A model generated the notes under the pieces. That model searched no databases, was not told the origin of the DNA, and saw nothing but the letters and a program-made list of their open reading frames with translations. From Pelagomonas calceolata (taxonomy: Eukaryota), in assembly GCA_918797485.1 (NCBI GenBank), contig CAKKNE010000004.1, positions 558,001 to 622,000 on the forward strand: a stretch of 64,000 nucleotides of DNA, given 5' to 3'. How positions within the stretch are numbered: the first letter of the stretch is position 1; each line of letters opens with the position of its first letter. Made by a program: the position numbers and the translations under genes. This document shows, in pieces, positions 426 through 64,000 of this stretch.

Positions 426-899
426 GGCACTTTGATCGGCCATGGGCTGCCTGAAACCGCTGCCCGCGTCGCGTCAAGCGCTGCCCGACGACTGCTGCTG
501 TGGCGGCGACCGTGCGGATGGGCCGCGCGGGGGCGACGCGAGCTCCAAAGGCCGCGCCTCGTCGCGTTTTGGCAAAGGGCGGCGGCCGAGAAACCAAGGA
601 AATTGAGCTACGAGCTTGTAGCCTTTAGGAGGTGTTGTGTGGCCGGGGGCCCTAGGAGCTGTCGCACGAGGCTGTGGGACGGGTGCACCCGTCCTAGTTC
701 GCAAACGCGTCTGCGGTCTCTCCCTGGTCCTTGTCTTGCTCTCTGTCGCAGTTCTACCCAGCGGCTGGGCTGCAACGTCGGAACCGCTGCTCGTGGCGCC
801 GATCCGCGCCCCCATACTGTCCCCACGCGCTCCGCTCGACTTTGCAGCCGCGTCGCCCGAACCGGCGCATCTGAACCGCCTGACCCAAGGTCACGAACG

Positions 900-1937
900 A
901 TGCCGCTCGCCGGAAGACTCGGGGAGATAGAAGACATCCTCGCGTTACATGAAGAGGCGGCGGCCGAGCAGGCTAGCGGCGCGACCCATTGCGTGTTTAC
1001 GCAAGTCGCGTGCCGCGCCAAAGTCGGCTTCGCGATATATGAGTTGCAGCTTTTAAGTAAGGATGGCACGCACTCGGGATCGAAGTTCGCCGCGAGGTGC
1101 AAGGAACTCTTTGGGGAGAAATTCGAAGATAACGAAGCCTGGCTCTCGAAGTGCGCCTCGCACGTGGGAGGGAGGTATGGAGGTATGAAGAGGTTCTGCG
1201 AATTTTTGGAGGACACGGACATCAAGATTGGGTGTGGCTACAAATCTATCCAGAACGCGATCAACTATTTCCACACGCTCCTAGATGCCTTTGCAGAGAA
1301 GTCGCCGGTCGCCTCCCAGTACCTGGCTTCGGACGTCCGCGTGTGCTACTATGATTACAAGATGCCCGGTTTCGTGGAAGCCTTCGCCTCGTGCATGGCG
1401 GACACGTTCGACTTCACGAAGCTGACGGAACTAGTAAAGTACTGCGAGGAGCAGCAGAAGGCCGCCGCGCTCGTGACGCTCTCTGATCAAGCCGGGTGCC
1501 CGGTCTCCGCGCTCGACGGCTGGGACGCGAAGGTATTAGGTCATCCTCAAACGTACTGGTTCCGAGACCCGAGCGGCAACGAGTACGTTTCGCTCGAGGC
1601 GGCCGCCGAGGCCGCCGCCTCGCTCCTCTCGGAGTCGGAGACGGAGTCGTCGTCGAACAAGCGCAGTCGGCCGGACGATGATGCCGACGACGCGCCGTCC
1701 TCGAAGCGCCTGCGGGGCGGCGGCTATGACAAGCACTCCACGCTCGTTCGGGTCTGCAAAAGGGCCGGCATCACGCACACGGACCAGATGGACACGGCCG
1801 AGCTGGAGCAGAAGATACGCTTCTGGGTCGCCGCGCACAACCCGCCGTCCGTTCCGCTCGCGAAAATGGCGGCTAGGATGGCGGGCGCGGGGAGCATGCT
1901 CGTTTTGGCCATCGAAGCCGTGGTGTATTATTCTTGA
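900..1937 (+). CDS. Hypothetical protein with NLS-like motif and hydrophobic C-terminus; distant paralog of 4026..5297
   Basis: ORF 432..1937, likely start ATG 900 (MPLAGRL). Contains KRSRP...PSSKRLR and a C-terminal hydrophobic stretch. Motifs are colinear with the 4026..5297 protein. Confidence 0.7.
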   Translation: MPLAGRLGEIEDILALHEEAAAEQASGATHCVFTQVACRAKVGFAIYELQLLSKDGTHSGSKFAARCKELFGEKFEDNEAWLSKCASHVGGRYGGMKRFCEFLEDTDIKIGCGYKSIQNAINYFHTLLDAFAEKSPVASQYLASDVRVCYYDYKMPGFVEAFASCMADTFDFTKLTELVKYCEEQQKAAALVTLSDQAGCPVSALDGWDAKVLGHPQTYWFRDPSGNEYVSLEAAAEAAASLLSESETESSSNKRSRPDDDADDAPSSKRLRGGGYDKHSTLVRVCKRAGITHTDQMDTAELEQKIRFWVAAHNPPSVPLAKMAARMAGAGSMLVLAIEAVVYYS

Positions 1938-2471
1938 TCGCATGTCGTGGTGCGAACGTGTCTTCCTTTCGTTGTTAATTATAAGAAAAAATAGAAAATG
2001 ACGCGACGGCGGGGCGACCTCGCGGCGTGGAGACGATGGGGCGCCGCGACCGGCGACGGCGTGGAAAGTCTGACGCGACGGTAGCAACGGCGAGGCGAGC
2101 TACGCGAAGCGCGAGGCGCTGCGGCGGCGTCGAGGCGGGAGCCTGAGATCGGGTAAACTTGTAAAAAAGCAGGCGCGATCACGCGCGAAGGTCCACATCT
2201 CGCTGCTTAGCGGTCTGGGCAGTAGTATAGTTCACAGGACCACGACGGGTCGCCTGCAAACGGAGCGAGCAGAATCCTACAAAAAAGCCGGGGGACATAG
2301 TTACATTGTGGACCGGGGGGAGGGACAGGGACAGGGCTCACATGTTCGCGGTGGCCTCACAACGCGGCGACCCGCGCCGAGGCTCGCGGAGACTTAGACT
2401 TGAACTGGAAGGAGCACCACAGACAGCCCACGATCTTGTTCGCGGACAGGCCTTGGGTACTCAGCGACGCC

Positions 2472-3116
2472 TCAGACCATGCACAAACGCGCGCCGAAGG
2501 CAGTAACACAGAAGCCCGCCAATAGCGCGAATAAATTCACCGCGAGTTGCAGTATGTTGCGAACCTGGTGCTTGAAGTTAGAACAGGGGGGCGGCCCAAC
2601 AACCGACTCCCGAAGATAATAACAGAGAGCCGCGAGGAGTCCGAACCAGATCGCGCCCCCAGCGAAGGTCCCCGAACCAGCGTTCTTGTACATCTTGAAC
2701 GGATTGAAATACAAACCAATCGTTCGCTTGTGATGCTCGCGGTACCTCTCGAGCTCACCATAGGCTTCCCCCAACTCATCTCGCTTGCAGTTCTCCATGC
2801 ATTCGTCTGCGACCTCGGGCCCCATCTCCAGGCCGTTGTATATCTGGTATTGGCCGGACTCGCACAAGTCATCGCAATAAATCGACGCGTTGATGTCCTG
2901 CTGCTCGAGTAGTCTCCACTTCTTATGCTCGACGCGCTTGATGCACTGGCTGCGCTCGCGGCTCTTCGCGCCCTTGTAGACGGCCTTGCAGCCGGCGACC
3001 GACTTAGGCACAGCAGGCACAGGCTCGACCGCCGGCACGGTGGTAAACGGCCACAGCGCGAAGGCGCAGGTCCACGGCGCGACGATGACTAAGACAAGAA
3101 GACGCGACAACTGCAT
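2472..3116 (-). CDS. Signal-peptide, Cys-containing protein with two C-terminal hydrophobic segments
   Basis: MQLSRLLVLVIVAPWTCAF signal-like start at 3116. Hydrophobic AIWFGLLAALCYYL and LAVNLFALLAGFCVTAFG segments. Confidence 0.65.
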   Translation of the reverse strand: MQLSRLLVLVIVAPWTCAFALWPFTTVPAVEPVPAVPKSVAGCKAVYKGAKSRERSQCIKRVEHKKWRLLEQQDINASIYCDDLCESGQYQIYNGLEMGPEVADECMENCKRDELGEAYGELERYREHHKRTIGLYFNPFKMYKNAGSGTFAGGAIWFGLLAALCYYLRESVVGPPPCSNFKHQVRNILQLAVNLFALLAGFCVTAFGARLCMV

Positions 3117-14723: not shown

Positions 14724-16502
14724 TTACTCCCCCTTCGACACGTTCCGCAGCAGAAAGAACACCGCGCCGCCGACCGCGCCCGCAACGCTCACGCCGGCCG
14801 CCGCGATCCGCACGGCCCGCCGCCGCATCTGGATCCTACGGGCTACCCGCGCGGCGTCCGCATGCACGAGAGACGTCTCGACCTCGCGCAGCGCGGCCGC
14901 GGACCGCACCTCGGCGGCCCGCGCGGCCTCGGCCTCGGCCGCGAGTTGGGCCGCGCGCTCCTGCGCCGCGCGCGCCTTCTCGGCCTCCGCCGCTCGAGCT
15001 TGCGCCTCCTTCTTTTGAGATCTCCCCACCCAGGACCGCAGATCAAACGCCGTCGCGTTGAGCTTCGCCTCGTAGTCTCTCCGCAAATTCTCGAGCGCCT
15101 CCTCTAAAGCGGTGCGTTGATCGACCTCCTCCCGATACAGACCCCGCAGATTGTCGACCTCGGCCGCCGCGTCCTGCATCTGTTCCTCCTGTTCCTCCTT
15201 CAGCTGCCGTTCTCGCTCCTGAAGTGCCTGCTCCTTCTCCTCGAGTTTGATTCGCAGCGCCTCGGCCTCCGCGGCGGCCTTGGCCGCGCCGTCGTCGTCC
15301 TGCTGCCTCCGCCGCTTCTTTTTTGGTGGAGGCGCCTCCTCCTCGACGGCCGCCTCCTCCGCGACCGGCTTCGGCCGCCGGCCGAACCAGCCCCGCTTCT
15401 TCGGCGCGGGCGCCACCGGCGCCTCGGGCTTCTTCTCGCCCCGCGAGAACATCTTGCGCCAGACCCAGCGCAAAAAGGACGGCTTCGGTGCTGCTTCTTC
15501 CGCGAGGAGGCCGTCGTTGCTCTTCTTACCGAGGAGCCGCGCGAGTAAGGAGCGCTTCTTGGTCGGCGCGGGCGCGGGCTCGACGGCCTCCTCCTCCTTT
15601 GCGGGGGTCTCGGCGGCCTCGGCGGCGCCGTCCCAGTCCACGTCGTCCGACGGAGCGGGCTCGGGGGCCGCTTCCGGCTCGGCGGCGGCGGCGGCAGCGG
15701 CGGCGGCCTCGGCCTCCGCGGCGCGCTGGGCCTCGGCCTCCTCGCGCGCCCGCGCCTCAGCGGCGGCCTGCGCCGCGGCGGCCTCCTGCTGCGCCTGCGC
15801 CTGCGCCTGCGCCGCGGCCTGCGCCTCCGCCTGCTGCCGCTGGGCGTACTGCGCGGCCTGCTGCTGCTGCACCGCGTCCGCGTTCGCCGCGAGCGCGGCG
15901 GCCCGAGCTTCTTCCGCTGCTTGGGGCGAGGCGACGCCGGGCTTGGCCCAGGGCGGGCGCTGCGCGTGCTGCGGCTGGGGTTGGTGTGCCCACGGCGGCG
16001 TCTGCGCCTGGGCGGCGGCCTGTTGCGCCTGCTGCGCCTGCTGTGCCTGCTGCGCCTGCTGCGCCTGGGCGGCGGCGGCCTCAGCGGGCGTCCGCGGCGG
16101 CTGCGCGCCCGCCTGTTGGGCGCGCGCGTTCGCGGCGAGTGCGGCGGCCCGCGCCTCCTCGGCCGCACGCGGGTCCGCGACGCCGGGCTTGGCCCAGGGC
16201 GCCTGTTGCTGCTGCTGTTGTTGTTGTTGCGGCGCCGGCGGCTGGGGGGGCGTCGACGGCCGGAGGCGCGAGACCGAGGGGGACTGTGGCCGCGCAGCCG
16301 GCGCGGCGCCCTGTGCAGCATCGATTTGCCAGCTCGTGCGGCCCGTCGCCCGGTCCACAAAGTACTGGCGGCCGGCCTGGTCCCACGCTGGCTCCCACAC
16401 GACGCCGCTCCGGTCGACGACGCGCGCGCCCTGCTGCGGCGGCGCGGGCTGGTTGGCGCGCGACATGCGTACCAGCGCGAGCAGAGCGAGGACGCGCGGC
16501 AT
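14724..16502 (-). CDS. Signal peptide + WW domain + Q/A-rich repeats + coiled coil + C-terminal TM protein
   Basis: WEPAWDQAGRQYFVDRATGRTSW (WW). Duplicated PWAKPGVAxPxAAEEARAAALAANA. C-terminal hydrophobic helix. Confidence 0.8.
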   Translation of the reverse strand: MPRVLALLALVRMSRANQPAPPQQGARVVDRSGVVWEPAWDQAGRQYFVDRATGRTSWQIDAAQGAAPAARPQSPSVSRLRPSTPPQPPAPQQQQQQQQQAPWAKPGVADPRAAEEARAAALAANARAQQAGAQPPRTPAEAAAAQAQQAQQAQQAQQAQQAAAQAQTPPWAHQPQPQHAQRPPWAKPGVASPQAAEEARAAALAANADAVQQQQAAQYAQRQQAEAQAAAQAQAQAQQEAAAAQAAAEARAREEAEAQRAAEAEAAAAAAAAAEPEAAPEPAPSDDVDWDGAAEAAETPAKEEEAVEPAPAPTKKRSLLARLLGKKSNDGLLAEEAAPKPSFLRWVWRKMFSRGEKKPEAPVAPAPKKRGWFGRRPKPVAEEAAVEEEAPPPKKKRRRQQDDDGAAKAAAEAEALRIKLEEKEQALQERERQLKEEQEEQMQDAAAEVDNLRGLYREEVDQRTALEEALENLRRDYEAKLNATAFDLRSWVGRSQKKEAQARAAEAEKARAAQERAAQLAAEAEAARAAEVRSAAALREVETSLVHADAARVARRIQMRRRAVRIAAAGVSVAGAVGGAVFFLLRNVSKGE

Positions 16503-23779: not shown

Positions 23780-25979
23780 ATGCCCACCGCCAAGCGCCGA
23801 GATCCAAACGCGAGGCTCGGCATGCCGCCAAAAAGTCAAAACAGGAGTGGAGGCGACATGCGCCGCTTCGTCAAGTCCAAGGACGTCGAGAAGAAGCCCC
23901 AGGCCTGGGCCGTGGGGCTGGACAAGTGGACCTTGTCCTTTTCCAATTCGGCACTTGACGGTGAGTGGAGGCGCCTCGTCGCGGGCCGTTCCAGAGCGCT
24001 GTGGCTCCGATCGCTACTGAGCGCCACCCTATACCAAGCCCTGCGCCACGCGGCGGACACGGCGCAGTTCGGGCCGGCGCCGCAGTGGGTCGTCGCGGTC
24101 CGATTGGTGCTGGCGGTCACCGAAGTGCTGCTGTTCGCCGTGGCCTACTGCGACTTATTACGACCTAGTCAGGCCGCCATCGCGGCGAACGCGTTCTTGT
24201 ACGGCATCGTGGAGCTGGCGTTGGTCGTTGATAGATTGAGGCCGCGCGTCGCTCCCGGGGATTGGCTGCACGTCCGCGACGCAGCGTCCTCGAAGCTGAC
24301 GCCATCGACGCGCCACGGCCTACCTCGCGTCGATGGCGTGGGGGCTGGCGCTCGCGACGCGCGCGCCTCACGCACGAACCACACAGGTCACGTACGGCCT
24401 GGCCTGGTTCATCGTGCCCAAGATGTCCGCTTTACAATTCTTTCCCGCGTGTTTAGGGTCCTGTGCGATTGTCGGCTGGTGGTCCTTGCTTTCTCTTGCG
24501 ACGATGGCTACTCCCCCGGAAGGCGCGAGGTACGGTGTGGGAGGTGATTTATGGAGGTTGCTACGGAGGTGGGCGCCCTTCGCGACACCCGTACGTATCC
24601 AAGAGTGCACGGGCGTCGACTGCGTCCAACGAACACTAGCAGCACTTGAGGAGTCGTCGGTTGTCAGACGAACAAGCTGGCAGGACGCGTCGGCGGGCTT
24701 AGCGTTAGTAGTGCCGGTAGTGGTCCTCTTCAACGTCGTCGCCTACTCGTCCGAGAAGTCCGTCAAGGAGCGGTTCGTGCTCAGAAGTGCGCTCGCCCAC
24801 GAACATCGCCACGACGTCCGCCTGTCATTACTAGGCGACGACGCGTCGCAGATGCTGTCTCGCTTGCAAGATGCGGTGAAGGCGCCTCGATTGAGACCGC
24901 CTGAAAACCGCAATGACAGGTTACTCTTAGCGGCGATACCAGCGGTATTACTTGCAGCATCAGGCTACTTTCCCTCGATCCCGTCCTTCACCGGTTCACT
25001 AGCTTCCTCAGCTTTTGGCGGCCCGGATGCCGCTTGGGCCGCTTTATCTCATGTGTTCGGGCTGAGTTTATTTCTACTCGTTCTGACGAAAAGAGTCAAA
25101 TTCCTACTCCTGACACCTCTCGTAGTAGCAGCTCTCTTCTACTTAGCTGCCCAAACATTGGTGGAGACGGATTCAAGAACAAAACTATTCCGGTGGGCCG
25201 GGAGCGTTGTCCTCGCCGCGTTTGTGCTAGGAGCATTTCGCGTAGCGCGACTCTTCGCGGCACTCCTCCACTTCGCTAGACGAACCTTGTTCCTCTACCC
25301 CCACCTGGAGGAAAATCTCAAGGAACATAGTGACGGGGAGGTCCTGGGCCGCCTTGTCGCGAAAGTCGAGCTGCCAAGGCCAAACAACCCGGGCGCGGTG
25401 CGCGGCGCGTTGGACACGACGACGCCGAACGAGGGCGAGTCCGAACAAAGTCTGTGTTCTTTAGGGTCGTACCGGTCCGAGGAGTCGTCGCAATCTGTGT
25501 GGAAATCAAATTTCGGGCGCCCCACGCCATCGACGCGACGTTGTCGCCGTGACCGCGTCGGTTCGATGGCGTGATTAACCTAACTCACTGGCTGATTTCC
25601 ACACAGGTCGCAATCGATTGGGCCGCTACCCGTGCTCCCGCTGGGATCGCATGATAGAGCCTGCGCTTTTTGTTCGCACGATCCCGGATCTACAAGCTGT
25701 CAAGCGACGCACGCCGTGCCCGTGTGCGGCGCGTGGGCGTCCTGGTACCTATGGAGAGCGGAGCGGGCGAAAAAAATGGATAGGGCGCGGAACGAGGTCT
25801 CGTCTCCCGTTGACGAGGGGCCCTCCCTGAGGCCGTGCTGCGACTTCGCGACGCTGGCGCTTGAACGAAGTGCGCTGCAGCGCGAGAACGCGTCGCTGCG
25901 CGCGCAGATCGCCTCTCTGAGAGCCCGCGAGCGGTCGCCGCCCTCTTCGCCTCCTGAACCTCAGCGGCCGCTCGAGTAA
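23780..25979 (+). CDS. Multi-pass membrane protein with a C-terminal Cys-rich (possible Zn-binding) and coiled-coil tail; 3 exons
   Basis: ORFs 23780.., 24333.. and 25632.. join in frame via introns 24272-24386 and 25487-25606. Many hydrophobic segments; CAFC...C...VCGAW tail. Confidence 0.75.
25495..25606 (+). mobile_element. Introner element (non-autonomous MITE-like DNA transposon forming an intron)
   Basis: Perfect 14-bp TIRs ctgtgtggaaatca (25495-25508) and tgatttccacacag (25593-25606). 8-bp direct repeat gtcgcaat at 25487-25494 and 25607-25614. Confidence 0.92.
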
Positions 25980-26184
25980 GTGGTTGCTGCCGTGTCTAGA
26001 CGTCTAGTCCTCCCCGCCGCGCCTGGCACTTTGAGGTTGGCTCTCTTGCCCAGACTCGGGCCAGAGTCTTGGTCTCGCCGACGTTCTCCGCCCCAGAACG
26101 TTGCCCAGACCCCCTGCAATTTGCTTTTGAGGTTGTCTCGCCGACGCTCTCGTTCCCCAGAAGCTGCCCAAACGCTGCCAAAGA

Positions 26185-27813
26185 ATGAAGACCGTTGCCG
26201 CCATCGCTATCCTCTGCCTCGGCGCCGCCGCCGCCAGGAAGGCGTCGCGCGAGACGGCCTCGGACCGCATCGAGAAGTTGCTGGCCGCCCGGGGCAGCAG
26301 GAAGACGACGCGCGCGAGCCGGCGCTTGGGGAGCCCGAAGCAGATGGTCGACACGGCGCACCCGCTGCTGAAGGCTCGCTGGGAGGCCACCGGCAAGCTT
26401 ACGCTGGCGGATATCGAGGCGGCGGCGGCGGCGCCCGAGTGGCGGACCGAGCGGGCCGTGCGCGGCCGGGACCGCGTCTCGCGCCTCGGGAGCATCAACG
26501 ACGACCGGACCGCCGACATGTGCGCGGCCTACACGGGTTCCGGAGCGGCGTGCTTCGAGGGCGACCTGTCCGAATTGGACGACGACTTCATCGTGTCGCT
26601 CGAGCCGGGCGCCTGCGCCACGTGCGGCTACGGCGAAGATGCGCCCTCGGGCGGCCAGGACGATTGGTCAGACTGCATCACGTGCGCCAACGCCGGGGAA
26701 GAAATCATTGTCCTCTTCGACGACTGCACGGGCACCTGCGTCGACGCGGCCGGCAAGGCGTTCTGGGAAGGGCTGGGCTACGCGGACCTGGACGACTCGG
26801 CGTGCGAGGCGACGCGGGCGTGCTACGACGATGACGGCTTCGTCGACTCGCTGTCGCTCGGCGGCACGAACGCGAAGTACGCCGGCGACGTTGGGAGCTA
26901 CTCGTACTCGTACGACGACGACGGCGGCAGTGACGACGACGGCTTCGCCTGCTTGGATGACTGCAGCTTTACCAACGACGACGACGAGGTGGGCTGGGAC
27001 TGCGCCGGCTACAGGGACATCGCCAGCTCGTGCCTGGCGGACTGCGACGCGTCGCTGGCGAACGAATTCGCGTTCCACTGCGCAGAGATGCTTATCAAGA
27101 CATTGTGCTATGCCGAAAAGACGGCCGCGAAGACCTGCGCCTGCGCCGAGTTAAACGTTTGCGACGACAGCGGCATCACCGGTTACAGCCTGCCCAGCGA
27201 CGCGGTCAACCACGGCGCGACGAACGGGGGCTGGTGCTCCGGGGGCGTGGACGACTGCAGCATGGACGACGATCCCGAGTTCGACGCCGCGGCCTGCTGG
27301 GGCCTCTGCGCGCTCAAGTACCCCGACTCGCTCGTCGCGATCGACCTCAACGAAGGTTCCTGCTGCTGCCAGGATAAGTGCGAATGCATGGCCAATATCG
27401 AAGACGGGAATGAGGTATACACCGACGCCTCGATCACGACGCTCCCCGCCGATTGCGGCGGCGACGACGACGACGACGTCGGTCCGCTCCCCGCTACCTG
27501 CGCGGACGGCGCGGCCAACAGCGAGTTCATCTGGGAATGCGGGGGCGGTCCCGTCTACCAGCAGGGCTGCGTCGACGAGTGGCACGCCTACGTCGAATGC
27601 AAGTGGAACTATTTCCCGGCGATCGTCGACGACACCTATTTCAACGGCCCGTCGTGCTCCCTGTCGTGCGCCGATGCCCTGTCGTCGCCGGCGCCGGCGC
27701 CGGCGCCGGCGCCGCGGCCCGCGAACGCCACCGCGCTCGGGTCCGACGCGGCGGCGGCGCGCGGCCCGCTCCTCGCCACCGCCGTCCTCGGCGCCGCGGC
27801 CGCGGCGCTCTAG
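26185..27813 (+). CDS. Cys/Asp-rich secreted, probably GPI-anchored surface protein
   Basis: Signal MKTVAAIAILCLGAAAA; many Cys; SYSYSY motif; PAPAPAP stalk; hydrophobic C-terminus SDAAAARGPLLATAVLGAAAAAL. Confidence 0.85.
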   Translation: MKTVAAIAILCLGAAAARKASRETASDRIEKLLAARGSRKTTRASRRLGSPKQMVDTAHPLLKARWEATGKLTLADIEAAAAAPEWRTERAVRGRDRVSRLGSINDDRTADMCAAYTGSGAACFEGDLSELDDDFIVSLEPGACATCGYGEDAPSGGQDDWSDCITCANAGEEIIVLFDDCTGTCVDAAGKAFWEGLGYADLDDSACEATRACYDDDGFVDSLSLGGTNAKYAGDVGSYSYSYDDDGGSDDDGFACLDDCSFTNDDDEVGWDCAGYRDIASSCLADCDASLANEFAFHCAEMLIKTLCYAEKTAAKTCACAELNVCDDSGITGYSLPSDAVNHGATNGGWCSGGVDDCSMDDDPEFDAAACWGLCALKYPDSLVAIDLNEGSCCCQDKCECMANIEDGNEVYTDASITTLPADCGGDDDDDVGPLPATCADGAANSEFIWECGGGPVYQQGCVDEWHAYVECKWNYFPAIVDDTYFNGPSCSLSCADALSSPAPAPAPAPRPANATALGSDAAAARGPLLATAVLGAAAAAL

Positions 27814-27859
27814 GCCGGACGGCCCAATTCACTTCCCCCCCCCCCATCATCGTCATGAT

Positions 27860-27973
27860 GCTCTCCGAGTCGCCCGGGCGGACCTACTCCGCCCTCGGCC
27901 GCTGGCTCCTCTCCTCCTTGAACCGCTCGGGCTCCGCCCTCGACCGCTGGTTTTCGCACTAAGGCACCATACT
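27860..27973 (+). repeat. 3' flank duplicated at 29082-29197
   Basis: gctctccgagtcgcccgggcggacctactccgccctcggccgctggctc...ctcgaccgctggttttcgcac is near-identical downstream of both surface-protein genes. Confidence 0.9.
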
Positions 27974-28311
27974 TCGTACTACTTCACGTCCGCCACGACC
28001 TCCGTGGCGCGGGATGGAGTTTTGAGTTTGTCGGCGTATGCCTATACGCTATCCATGCGCAATTGCGGAGGATTTATATTGTTACGGTGCTAGAACTAGT
28101 GGGCGGAGCCTTGCGGAGGATTGACCAGTAATAAACTCTCTAGAGTTTGCAGCAGATTTGCAGCTATGCGAGACTGCCAGAGTGAAGTGCTTTGCGAGCC
28201 GTAGACGCTGCCCAAACAAGGCCAGGTGGAATATTTCCCAGTCCGAGCCACTGAGCAGTTTTCTGGGACACTACGCTGCCGGGGAAATCCGGAGCTACAC
28301 ACTCTACGCAG

Positions 28312-29034
28312 ATGAAGACCGCCGCCGTCACCCTTGCCCTCTGCCTCAGTGTCGCCACTGGCGACGACAGGTGCATCGGCGGTTGGAAGACTGGCGACGG
28401 CCAGGGGCCACTGGGGTCGGCATATGAGATGTCCTTAGGGACTGCCGATAGCCGCGAGGCGTGCATCGATGCCGTACAAGCTCTCAACACCGGCGCCAAC
28501 GCTGCAACCTACTCAACCGATGGCACCAAGGCGTGCTATGTGGAGTACGGCCAGACGACTGTTGATACCAGTTCGTATAGTTCGGACTATGAGAACTGCC
28601 TCCTCACGGCGCCGGCGACGCCGAGCCGCGACCTCGACGGCGACGGCGCCGAGGACGTCGCGCCCGAGGGCTCCTGCTGCATCGTCCAGTACGGCGTCGG
28701 CTTCGATACTCAGTGTGGCAGTACCCTGGCGGAGGTCACGGCGAGCAATTGCTGCCCGAGCCCCTTCGTCGCCCGCTACCATCTCGGGGCCAGCGGCGAA
28801 GAGACGACAAACTACGACTGCGTCTCCTTCATCAGCAAGGAGGACTGCATCACCTACGGACAGACTTGGAGCGGGGGCGACGACGACCCGATTGGCCTCG
28901 GCCAGATCGGGGGCTGCCCCCACTCCGCCGCGGCGCCCGCGTACGAAGCAGCGCTCAAGGAGTCCGATTCCGCGCCCGCGTCGGGCCCGGCGCTCCTCGC
29001 CACCGTCCTCGCGGCCGCGGCCGCGGCGCTCTGA
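28312..29034 (+). CDS. Cys-rich secreted, probably GPI-anchored protein (possible PAN/apple-like module)
   Basis: Signal MKTAAVTLALCLSVATG; C-terminus SDSAPASGPALLATVLAAAAAAL. Confidence 0.85.
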   Translation: MKTAAVTLALCLSVATGDDRCIGGWKTGDGQGPLGSAYEMSLGTADSREACIDAVQALNTGANAATYSTDGTKACYVEYGQTTVDTSSYSSDYENCLLTAPATPSRDLDGDGAEDVAPEGSCCIVQYGVGFDTQCGSTLAEVTASNCCPSPFVARYHLGASGEETTNYDCVSFISKEDCITYGQTWSGGDDDPIGLGQIGGCPHSAAAPAYEAALKESDSAPASGPALLATVLAAAAAAL

Positions 29035-29081
29035 GGCGCCGTCGCCCAATTCGCCTCTGCACATTCCCCCCATCCACGATC

Positions 29082-29197
29082 GCTCTCCGAGTCGCCCGGG
29101 CGGACCTACTCCGCCCTCGGCCGCTGGCTCCCCTCCTCCTTGAACCGCTCGGGCCTCCGCCCTCGACCGCTGGTTTTCGCACCTAAGACACCGTACT
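29082..29197 (+). repeat. Second copy of the duplicated 3' flank
   Basis: Near-identical to 27860-27973. Confidence 0.9.
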
Positions 29198-29600: not shown

Positions 29601-30239
29601 GGTTTATAAAGCGGAGGCGTCCGCGGCGATTCCACTCCTAGCCTGCGGGGGGCGGTGAGCGTCTCGTGTGTGTCCGCCGCCGTTCGAGGCGTCTCGGTGA
29701 GCGTCTCGTGTGCGGGCATCTCATCGAGGGTCCCGCTGCCGTTCGCAGGTCTCGCGCGTGCGTCTCGTGTGTGTCGATTGGGTTCCAGCCCTCCCGCGGC
29801 GGCCGAGCGCCTCGCCGGGCCTCGCCGGCGCCCGCGGCGGTGCCTCAGAGCTCCCCGCAGCGCGCTGACAGGCCTGAGCCCTCGCTGGTTCCGCGGCAGT
29901 GCCTTGCAAAAACGTCCGCAGCGCGCTGACAGCGTCTCGCGTGCTCCAGGCCTCTATGCAAGCTAAGCAGCCGAGGCGCTGATAATCGGCGAGGACCGTA
30001 AGAGTGAGCAAACCAGCGCTCCGTGACAGCCTCGGGTGACGTATAGAGCTCCGGCAAGGCGGTTTGGGACTCTGAAATGCACGCTATAGGCCTAAAAGCT
30101 GAGCGTCGCTGTCTAGGCGATGCTGTTTTTTTTGCTCCTAGTGTCTTTACGCTAGCAGCGCTGATCGATCGATGGGCCGCCCACGAGTCCCCACACCGTC
30201 ACGGAACACCCTACGACACCGAAATACAGCATAGACTTA

Positions 30240-62325: not shown

Positions 62326-64000
62326 TCACCGCTGCCGGCTATGCATATAGGGCTGCTCTAGAGGAGCGAAAAGACGTGGGCTTGACCACGACAAGGCGGA
62401 ACGCCACCTATTTTTGCGTGGGCTTGACCACGCCACGGCGCGACGCCACCTGTTTGCAATGCGGGAACGTCGGTGGTCCTCGAGGAGCGCGACGATCTCT
62501 GCGTGGCCCTCGCGTTGGGCAATCGCCAGCGGCGAGCGTAGGAGCTTGCGGATGAGCCGCGCATCGACACCCGTCTCCTTCTCGCCGTGGTCGTAGGTGA
62601 TGTCGTACTTGCCATTACCATGGTCTCGGCTGACTTTTCCGGGGCAATATTCTCGGCATCGATACCGTGCCTCGACCACGTCGCCCTCCCGGTATTCGGC
62701 GCCATCAAGGGATTCGTCGTCGCGTGGCACCGCGGCCCCACGCTCAAGCAAGAGCCGTGCCGCCTCGACGTGGCCCTCCTCGCAGGCGATGTACAGGGGC
62801 GTTCGGCCGTTCTTGTTCGCCCGGTCGACCTCCGCGCCTTTATCTAGCAACAGCTGCGCTGCGTCGACGTGGCCCTTGCGGCAGGCGGCGAACAGCGGCG
62901 TCCGGCCGTCGTCGTCCGCCAGGTTAATATCCGCCCCACGATCCAAGCAGAGTTGTGCCGCGTCGACGTGACCTTCGTAGCACGCGACGAGCAGCGGCGT
63001 TGCGCCTTTCCACTTCCCCTTCTCTGCCGCCCGGTCGACCTCAGCGCCACGCTCCAGCAACAGCCGCGCCGCGTCGATGTGGCCCTTCTTGCACGCGATG
63101 AATAATGACGTCGCTCCACCCCCTGGAGCTTGGTTGACCGCGGCGCCGTCGTCCAGGAGTTGAGTCATCGCGTCGACGTCGCCGGTCCGTGCTGCAGCGT
63201 GAAGTGGGAATTTCAAATCCAATTGTTCCTCGAGCAGCGCGACGACCGCGTCATGATGATTATTCTTTGCTACGTCCAGCGGCGTCATACCGTTCTTAGA
63301 CGCCTGAGTAATTTCCGCGCCCTTATCTAACAACAGCCGCGCCACGTCGACATGACCGTTGCAGCAGGCATAGAATAGCGGCGTCCAGTCGTCCTTATCC
63401 GCCCGATCGACCTCCGCGCCTTTCTCCAGCACCAGCCGCGCCGCTTCGACGTGGCCCTCGTGGCAGGCGGCGAACAGCGGCGTCCATCCGTCCTCTTCCG
63501 CTTTGTCGACCTCAGCGCCTTTGTCCAGCAGCAGCCGCGCCGCGTCGACGTGGCCCTTCCAGCAGGCGGTGAACAGCGGCGTGTTGCCCCACTTATCCGC
63601 CCGGTCCACCTCCGCGCCGTTGTCCAGCAGCAGCCGCGCCGCCTCGACGTGGCCGCCCTCGCACGCTACGAATAGAGGCGTCGCGCCGTCCCCCTTTGCA
63701 TCTATCTCTGCGCCGCCAGCAAGGACCTGCGTCATCGCGTCGGCGTCGCCGGTCCGTGCCGCAGCGTGAAGTGGGAATTTCAAATCCAATTGTTCCTCGA
63801 GCAGCGCGACGACTGCACCATGATTACAATGCTTTGCGACAAGCAGCGGCGTTGCGCCTTTCCACTCCTTCTTCTCTACCGCCCGGTCGATCTCCGCGCC
63901 GTTATGCAGCAACAGTCGCGCGGCGTCAACGTGGCCGTGTTCGCACGCTACGACTAGGGGCGTTGCGCCGTCCCCTTTAGCTTGGTCGACCGCGGCGCCG
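62326..64000 (-). CDS. Ankyrin-repeat protein with an inserted Tudor-like domain (5' end outside window)
   Basis: Many GxTPLFxACxxGHVxAARLLLxxGAxV repeats; YREGDVVEARY...PGKV...YDITYDHGE insert. Confidence 0.92.
   Translation of the reverse strand, partial: GAAVDQAKGDGATPLVVACEHGHVDAARLLLHNGAEIDRAVEKKEWKGATPLLVAKHCNHGAVVALLEEQLDLKFPLHAAARTGDADAMTQVLAGGAEIDAKGDGATPLFVACEGGHVEAARLLLDNGAEVDRADKWGNTPLFTACWKGHVDAARLLLDKGAEVDKAEEDGWTPLFAACHEGHVEAARLVLEKGAEVDRADKDDWTPLFYACCNGHVDVARLLLDKGAEITQASKNGMTPLDVAKNNHHDAVVALLEEQLDLKFPLHAAARTGDVDAMTQLLDDGAAVNQAPGGGATSLFIACKKGHIDAARLLLERGAEVDRAAEKGKWKGATPLLVACYEGHVDAAQLCLDRGADINLADDDGRTPLFAACRKGHVDAAQLLLDKGAEVDRANKNGRTPLYIACEEGHVEAARLLLERGAAVPRDDESLDGAEYREGDVVEARYRCREYCPGKVSRDHGNGKYDITYDHGEKETGVDARLIRKLLRSPLAIAQREGHAEIVALLEDHRRSRIANRWRRAVAWSSPRKNRWRSALSWSSPRLFAPLEQPYMHSRQR

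Follow-up and report, generated by a model that had tools for sequence, protein, structure and literature searches.

The gene pair and its common ends

The DNA analysed here, a 64-kb stretch of the Pelagomonas calceolata genome with a GC content near 63% (hereafter the window), contains two tandem genes, A and B, for cysteine-rich proteins with common ends and unlike bodies, which probably belong to a larger family in which modules are exchanged between those ends. The genes, their predicted glycosylphosphatidylinositol (GPI) attachment signals, and the noncoding 3' flank that follows each of them are located as follows.

26185 to 27813, + strand: gene A, an open reading frame (ORF) of 542 aa with 37 Cys, apparently intronless, with low sense-strand RNA cover; by module hidden Markov models (HMMs) its layout is signal peptide, basic pro-region ending RRL, modules K, L, W and H, Pro/Ala linker, GPI-type tail
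27742 to 27810, + strand: predicted GPI-attachment signal of A, SDAAAARGP and 14 uncharged hydrophobic residues (pattern and hydropathy)
27860 to 27973, + strand: conserved 3' flank, copy A (BLASTN); 3' untranslated region (3'UTR) in at least one expressed paralogue
28312 to 29034, + strand: gene B, an ORF of 240 aa with 13 Cys, intronless; signal peptide, modules E and R, GPI-type tail
28963 to 29031, + strand: predicted GPI-attachment signal of B, SDSAPASGP and a hydrophobic tail (pattern check)
29082 to 29197, + strand: conserved 3' flank, copy B, directly adjoining the RPL31 mRNA at its 3' end (about 29243)

Comparison of the two gene regions by BLASTN yields one strong block, 27710-27973 against 28926-29197 (229/280 identical, E 2e-66), spanning the tail codons and the 3' flank, together with a weak match of 45 nt in the signal-peptide DNA (34/45, E 7e-4). 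The flank lies where the original prediction had placed it, with 95.7% identity over 116 columns and 99/100 aligned columns identical in the core, as after recent conversion or duplication, and the N- and C-termini described there as shared are those of the ORFs at 26185-27813 and 28312-29034. BLASTP of A against B gives nothing better than E 0.28, so that the bodies are not collinear paralogues, in agreement with the earlier claim that the Cys-rich middles do not align. A Pfam search of both proteins returned zero matches at E up to 1, including to PAN_1 and PAN_4, and no third family member was found elsewhere in the 64-kb window. Exon shuffling via introns was considered and rejected, with no joint lying inside A or B among 15 of the 70 RNA joints, and with a complete 240-aa transcript product 99% identical to B.

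Signal peptides are indicated by hydropathy, with the most hydrophobic 17-aa window of A starting at residue 1 (Kyte-Doolittle value, KD, 1.93), the residue-1 window of B reaching 1.42, and a Met-Lys start. A pattern check of 44 distinct tails found the features expected of a GPI signal, namely small residues at omega to omega+2, a polar spacer, and a hydrophobic end free of a cytosolic tail, with S in 38/44 tails at the first position, D or N in 44/44 at the second, S or A in 44/44 at the third, and A in 41/44 at the fourth. The resulting pattern is S-[DN]-small-small, an invariant GP, and 13-19 hydrophobic residues (KD 2.0-2.8), uncharged in 43/44. Both kinds of call come from pattern and hydropathy rather than from a trained predictor. 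A and B are predicted to enter the endoplasmic reticulum (ER) through the signal peptide, with GPI addition predicted near S520/D521 of A and S218/D219 of B, and the P. calceolata gene table (supplement rows) annotates GAA1, PIG-K, PIG-T, PIG-M, and PIG-V of the GPI pathway, transamidase subunits among them. The basic pro-region at 26236-26325, ending RRL, is found in 63 of the 154 complete members described below, all of the K- and H-first types, and is a possible processing site.

Module mosaics across the family

HMMs were built for ten modules (K, L, W, H, E, D, R, S, G, and T), six of which make up the bodies of A and B.

26326 to 26889, + strand: module K, aa 48-235 of A (HMM)
26947 to 27174, + strand: module L, aa 255-330 of A, Cys-rich (HMM)
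27220 to 27459, + strand: module W, aa 346-425 of A, possibly a remote PAN/WSC-like relative of D and E (HMM)
27487 to 27684, + strand: module H, aa 435-500 of A, with Cys-x9-Cys; N-terminal in H-R proteins (HMM)
28369 to 28605, + strand: module E, aa 20-98 of B, predicted PAN/apple-like fold; single copy in this genome (DNA runs)
28627 to 28923, + strand: module R, aa 106-204 of B, opening with an invariant RD[LM]DGD; at least two further copies in this genome

The short echoes noted earlier between the two bodies are both present, with EGSCC, found in the unlike modules W of A and R of B, probably due to chance, and with GGW standing at the start of modules W and E, whose link is remote and runs indirectly through D.

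Protein searches returned 15 relatives with A and 53 with B, many of them highly identical to the query but over part of its length only. A set of 469 distinct proteins was assembled from homologues, cluster members, and remote hits, and is biased to A- and B-like bodies and includes near-duplicates. Within this set the family signal peptide stands at the start of 212/469 proteins, with 154/469 also carrying the tail at the end, in 11 architectures: D-R (60), H-R (54), E-R (15), E-D-R (5), K-L-W-H (4), and H-L-W-H (4), and more rarely S-R (4), S-D-R (3), R-R (2), R alone (2), and K-H (1). A separate search with module G found 37 proteins, 29 of which have the tail and form a twelfth architecture. 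Other ends also occur, with 31 E-T proteins carrying a transmembrane segment and a cytosolic tail, and six S-R-W-H proteins, in which A-type and B-type modules are thus joined in one protein, carrying another hydrophobic end. D-R, H-R, and, with its other end, E-T are far too recurrent for chance chimeras.

The architectures bear out the expected mosaicism, with near-identical modules found beside different partners. An identical R module occurs behind E or D, R modules are 95% identical between E and S partners, and L and W modules 94–97% identical to those of A follow a different first module. In a tree of 58 R modules, drawn from 245 after those with unknown partners and near-duplicates had been removed, 20 changes of partner label are required, compared with a minimum of 5 and a shuffled mean of 28.3, and the starred branches force at least five changes for E and at least four for D. 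The ratio of nonsynonymous to synonymous substitution rates (dN/dS) is 0.95–1.32 in five module pairs, with a sixth pair showing 5 nonsynonymous and 0 synonymous changes, against 0.03 for the neighbouring gene, and the diverging pairs keep nearly all of their cysteines. These values suggest relaxed or diversifying selection and are not proof of the latter. By eye, comparison of P0044 and P0024 with P0060 shows that W appears inserted inside the twin Cys-x9-Cys module H, a domain insertion and not an end-to-end fusion.

The same locus and related loci in environmental DNA

Four further features of the window serve in the comparison with environmental contigs.

23780 to 25978 (approximate limits), + strand: upstream membrane-protein gene, left synteny anchor
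26122 to 26234, + strand: A-type 5' leader and signal-peptide codons, 85% identical with the 5' ends of L002 gene 2 (R-R) and L011 gene 2 (D-R)
27974 to 28311, + strand: A-B spacer and promoter of B; the same spacer precedes the E-T gene of L003
29250 to 29600, - strand: RPL31e, right synteny anchor (Pfam PF01198)

The environmental contig L010 (42,277 bp) is syntenic with the window, with the upstream neighbour identical at 359/363 aa and all 117/117 codons of RPL31 specifying the same protein. Between these anchors lies a tandem pair of genes that have the signal peptide, tail, and flank of the family, the first carrying module G in place of K-L-W-H, with a frameshift after the pro-region in that assembly, and the second a divergent D-R body. 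L010 enters gene 1 via DNA unlike the promoter in the window. The bodies at the syntenic position thus differ between the window and this environmental contig, and together with the 12 architectures these different bodies agree with the module shuffling between conserved ends that had been proposed for the pair.

Other arrangements occur on further contigs. L011 holds a gene ending in R and a D-R gene ahead of RPL31, L002 a gene ending in H followed by an R-R gene with the 5' leader of A before it, and L007 an E-D gene behind a flank; the 5' leader and signal-peptide unit of A also sits ahead of other family genes elsewhere. In L003 the flank and spacer match the window at 454/462 columns (98%; 27853-28311), at 97–100% per 60-nt bin, with identity falling to 85–90% in module E before the sequence switches to the transmembrane module T via an ALGS hinge, which resembles the start of the GPI-type tail. 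This spacer also leads into E-T in a second record, P0314. The contigs of P0314, of an E-R protein, and of a PGAM5-like neighbour share one size (17,904), as do those of an H-R protein and PGAM5 (7,695), which suggests, without proving it, that the contigs are the same, and hence that there are longer arrays in which unequal crossover could give rise to B.

The intron at 25487-25606 of the upstream gene (GT..AG, spliced in 26-34 reads per run) is an introner-like element that is also present in L010; its ends carry terminal inverted repeats as well as a 9-nt direct repeat, and it attracts hundreds of partial reads that derive from elsewhere. An intron of this kind, the GC content, and the occurrence of matches in marine metagenomes agree with a Pelagomonas-type pelagophyte as characterised in PMC9481584. 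About 34 nt of the spacer (28077-28110), of which the window has one exact copy, draw contigs at ~300–400x single-copy depth in three DNA runs, and are probably the end of a high-copy repeat. A further 39 nt (28268-28306), just upstream of the start of B, are common to well-expressed transcripts and several contigs elsewhere in the genome. RPL31 has a 440-nt intron in its 5' UTR (29642-30081; 173-1133 reads), and its mRNA ends about 7 nt past the stop codon, beside the flank of B. Elsewhere in the window, self-BLAST finds tandem coding-like repeats at 62735-64000 and 15680-16242, with units 70–83% identical.

Copies and expression in the same organism

Each of three DNA runs from culture holds four further flank variants, all of them close to single-copy depth: a 464-nt contig that has 18 differences, a form with a 103-nt deletion, a form joining the tail of A to the flank of B, and a form with a 4-nt deletion. 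The runs also hold at least two more R copies, including an R-R junction, and module E once only. There are at least six flank copies in this organism, a number that rests on contig variants in the DNA runs, summed depth not being a copy number; the reservation of the original prediction that only two copies might exist therefore falls.

Sense-strand RNA depth in four runs of one sample is 0-6 for A and 1-8 for B, compared with 457-3049 for RPL31, with A, B, and at least three variant classes all at a depth under about 12 and no dominant member. The flank reads mostly carry the letters of paralogues (78/78 sense reads at 29096, and 26/28 at 27874). Between 8 and 23 reads per run bridge the stop region and the flank, making the flank a 3'UTR in at least one paralogue. 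The original prediction had raised exclusive expression of single members; the bulk RNA of this sample shows several members read at once at a low level and no sign of exclusive switching, which speaks against one dominant coat protein under the sampled conditions.

The 3' flank

The flank core is identical between the window and L010 at 96/100 columns for the first copy, 20 of which were fixed by the search, and at 94/101 for the second. Four-fold degenerate sites of the two anchors agree at only 117/194 (upstream neighbour) and 44/56 (RPL31) positions, and a flank identity so far above that of four-fold sites points to selection. The alternative offered in the original prediction, a constrained shared 3'UTR element, is probably also true, with the flank transcribed together with the stop region in a paralogue, and is compatible with shuffling.

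Matching an exact flank 20-mer against metagenomes gave 17 loci, comprising 10 true flanks and 7 chance matches (L001, L004, L005, L009, L012, L016, and L017, in which the match did not extend past the 20-mer and which were left out). Family genes and the flank go together, with 9/11 environmental copies with visible upstream DNA following a GPI-type tail, and 1/11 following a G-module gene that ends in a transmembrane segment (L014). A variant of the flank that contains a 10-nt internal duplication is found at a second locus ahead of a conserved gene (L006, L008), in L006:1-480 behind an unrelated 86-codon frame with no Pfam match; the same variant stands behind the G-module gene in L014.

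A search of Rfam with both flanks gave no match at E up to 5, and the folding energy of the flank is nothing unusual (z -0.6 to 0). Hairpins are possible, with 1/28 pairs changing on both sides, probably in one event. A coding role for the flank was rejected, the 35-codon frame of copy A being broken by indels in B and other copies. Among viral contigs the flank pattern has 0 matches, and 0/69 (B) and 0/30 (A) alignment-pattern hits were confirmed, although viral relatives may nonetheless exist.

Predicted folds of the modules

The model of B has a mean pLDDT of 65, with cores of about 70–85, and comprises two folded domains. Module E of this model matches known structures with best Z scores of 9.3, 8.1, and 8.0 (root-mean-square deviation, rmsd, 2.5–2.9 over 69–78 residues), and most of the 20 chains at Z of at least 5 are PAN/apple, AMA1, WSC, or MANEC domains. 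The top Foldseek rows for B are the apple lectin SML-2 (E 0.02), whilst the Atlas neighbours of module E are PAN clusters with scores of 0.83–0.84, which serve as a lead only. Module E is thus predicted, on the strength of these models, to adopt a PAN/apple fold. By hhalign, D and E are related at a probability of 99.8%, W and D at 68% (E 5e-5), and W and E at 0.7%.

The E/D module is widespread, a cut-off of E 0.001 yielding 338 representatives, many of them within multi-domain, unrelated proteins, and a remote multi-repeat homologue, P0143, matches PAN_1 at E 6e-12 only when summed over its repeats. In proteins P0143-P0285 the PAN-like E/D domain occurs as up to 14 repeated units or is joined to trypsin, DUF285, fn2, and other domains; it is an unclassified mobile domain with no Pfam family of its own.

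The structure hits for B reach residues 15-102 only, leaving module R uncovered, and the RD[LM]DGD start of R is reminiscent of Dx[DN]xDG calcium loops. For A, the AlphaFold model (pLDDT 32) is unusable, and Atlas hits lie below 0.9 with a TM score of at most 0.33. Module G falls below the cut-off of Pfam CfaA_B_C (best 28.0 vs 28.6 bits).

Discussion

We consider it probable that A and B belong to a family of modular, Cys-rich proteins encoded in multiple copies. Secretion and GPI anchoring are predicted for its members, and their bodies vary by copy and, at the same locus, by genome, likely through module swaps by unequal crossover and gene conversion. In the scheme that we infer for GPI anchoring, recombination mechanism, and selective agent, the leader and signal peptide, the linkers (ALGS, PTP, SYSYS, and poly-D), the shared modules, and the tail with its 3' flank would act as homology anchors, allowing ordinary homologous recombination within and between small tandem arrays to reshuffle the intronless modules. 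Unequal crossover and gene conversion would exchange modules between fixed ends, with the flank additionally kept by selection as a shared 3'UTR. The products would pass through the ER, gain a GPI anchor, and display putative binding modules at the surface, where these may bind glycans or proteins outside the cell, with variation driven by viruses, grazers, or cell-cell recognition. It is possible, though rather doubtful, that the tail, flank, and 5' leader form a dedicated cassette-exchange system that yields a combinatorial coat deciding virus or grazer recognition in wild picoalga populations.

Several points weigh against this reading of the family. The evidence across genomes comes from short-read metagenome and metatranscriptome assemblies, which can join strains at shared sequence, and singleton architectures may be artefacts of assembly. 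In their longest pieces, the three DNA runs from culture are identical to the window throughout and so show no strain variation in culture, and the flank letter of B itself at 29096 is found in 0 reads across the four RNA runs. The R tree is short (102 columns, with 14/54 branches open), and partners on it still cluster more than shuffled labels do (20 vs 28.3 changes). Four-fold sites of gene A are G or C at 268/286 positions, and such a bias at synonymous sites inflates dN/dS. The two flanks of L010 agree with each other at 90/101 columns and each with those of the window at 94–97, which argues against constant homogenisation. Furthermore, the noncoding DNA just past the flank is kept at 93/100 between the window and L010, so that conservation of the flank needs no role in recombination, and upstream of the remaining 1/11 environmental flank copy (L006) there is an unrelated ORF.

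A rival account, in which a tandem family turns over slowly by ordinary birth and death, domains are now and then gained or lost, and the flank persists only as a regulatory 3'UTR that plays no role in exchange, would explain why the flank core is 94–96% identical to L010 against 117/194 and 44/56 at four-fold sites, as purifying selection predicts, and would suit both the sense transcription of the flank with the stop region in a paralogue and the possible hairpins with their one compensatory pair. We nevertheless regard it as unlikely, since identical or 95% identical modules with non-homologous partners, and the abrupt switch behind a 98% spacer, indicate recent exchange, and the folding z of -0.6 to 0 does not favour a structured flank. 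That the mosaics are mostly assembly chimeras, and the real family a handful of fixed genes, is very improbable: most proteins do come from 1-3 kb contigs, and some are frameshifted (as is L010 gene 1 after its pro-region) or end in nonsense, but in the window and the culture DNA runs themselves shared ends carry unlike bodies and an R-R junction occurs, L010 reaches gene 1 through DNA foreign to the promoter in the window, and the main architectures occur in tens of records from more than one source, with single proteins on up to 41 contigs.

A still smaller chance is given to the idea that the flank, alone or together with the tail, is a small element, mobile or dispersed, which comes to lie downstream of unrelated genes. 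Its presence at more than one locus, behind the unrelated ORF of L006, which has no Pfam match, and behind the transmembrane-ended gene of L014, fits such an element, whereas the position after a tail in 9/11 copies, always in gene orientation, the sharing of signal peptides and 5' leaders as well, the handful of copies per genome, and the lack of an Rfam match do not. Least probable of all is a programmed switch between antigens in which each cell expresses a single member, as in VSG or ciliate i-antigens. The architecture resembles these systems, and exclusivity within single cells may escape bulk RNA; however, A, B, and at least three variant classes all lie under a depth of about 12, compared with 457-3049 for RPL31, with no dominant member, and the array is small and internal, with no silent archive seen in the window.

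By analogy, the exchange of modules between conserved ends likely makes the family a variable surface-protein array like MASP of Trypanosoma cruzi. MASP members have a conserved signal peptide, GPI signal, and untranslated regions, of which the 3'UTR is most conserved, around a variable mosaic middle, with chimeric members also described (PMC2691823). The same paper reports co-expression in the population and internal chromosomal arrays, and proposes the conserved ends as recombination anchors, so that terminal signals with a conserved 3' flank, mosaic middles, chimeras, co-expression, and internal arrays are common to both families (PMC2691823). It also describes MASP middles as repetitive and mucin-like, in about 1,400 genes of a parasite that are rarely arranged head-to-tail (PMC2691823). 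The algal family, in contrast, has discrete disulphide-rich modules, one of them PAN/apple-like, in roughly at least six head-to-tail copies per genome of a free-living organism, and the bodies of A and B, with 37 and 13 Cys, are Cys-rich in place of a mucin-like repetitive centre. No MASP-named match was present among the homologues and no Pfam match was found, these being searches that involved no direct comparison with MASP sequences.

Ciliate i-antigens show mutually exclusive high expression. This is not seen here in bulk RNA of one sample, where several members are low. The Ser/i-antigens of Tetrahymena share with the algal proteins a Cys-rich, GPI-linked, and polymorphic nature, tandem arrays, and a free-living protist host, and differ in having periodic Cys repeats of fixed length, whereas A and B have non-repeating, mutually unalignable modules (PMC4136848). 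Module E resembles PAN/apple adhesins and lectins and related domains (Toxoplasma MIC4, Sarcocystis SML-2, the HGF N domain, and WSC) at Z 7–9 and rmsd 2.5–3.2 over 69–79 residues, although identity to module E is 6–17% and A and B lack a Pfam PAN match. A hypervariable locus in a picoalga is also known from the small outlier chromosome of Mamiellales, which has been linked to virus resistance; there a whole low-GC chromosome changes in size, whereas here a small GC-rich gene array lies between housekeeping genes (10.1101/513622, PMC13242883). The fungal variable surface proteins of PMC8786786 are disordered, unlike the algal modules.

Our literature search, with most subscription papers outside its reach, found no description of such a family in pelagophytes. 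For eukaryotic picophytoplankton, it is still largely unclear which molecules at the cell surface determine specificity towards viruses and grazers. The array described here is small, has conserved ends, and is accessible to PCR, so that the repertoires of strains and populations could be typed directly and compared with their susceptibility to viruses or grazers. If the family is as proposed, the design of trypanosome coats, with conserved ends and a mosaic middle, also works with folded domains in a free-living alga, and, should the more doubtful cassette-exchange reading hold, phytoplankton would possess a parasite-style variable antigen system, in an abundant picoalga of the ocean.

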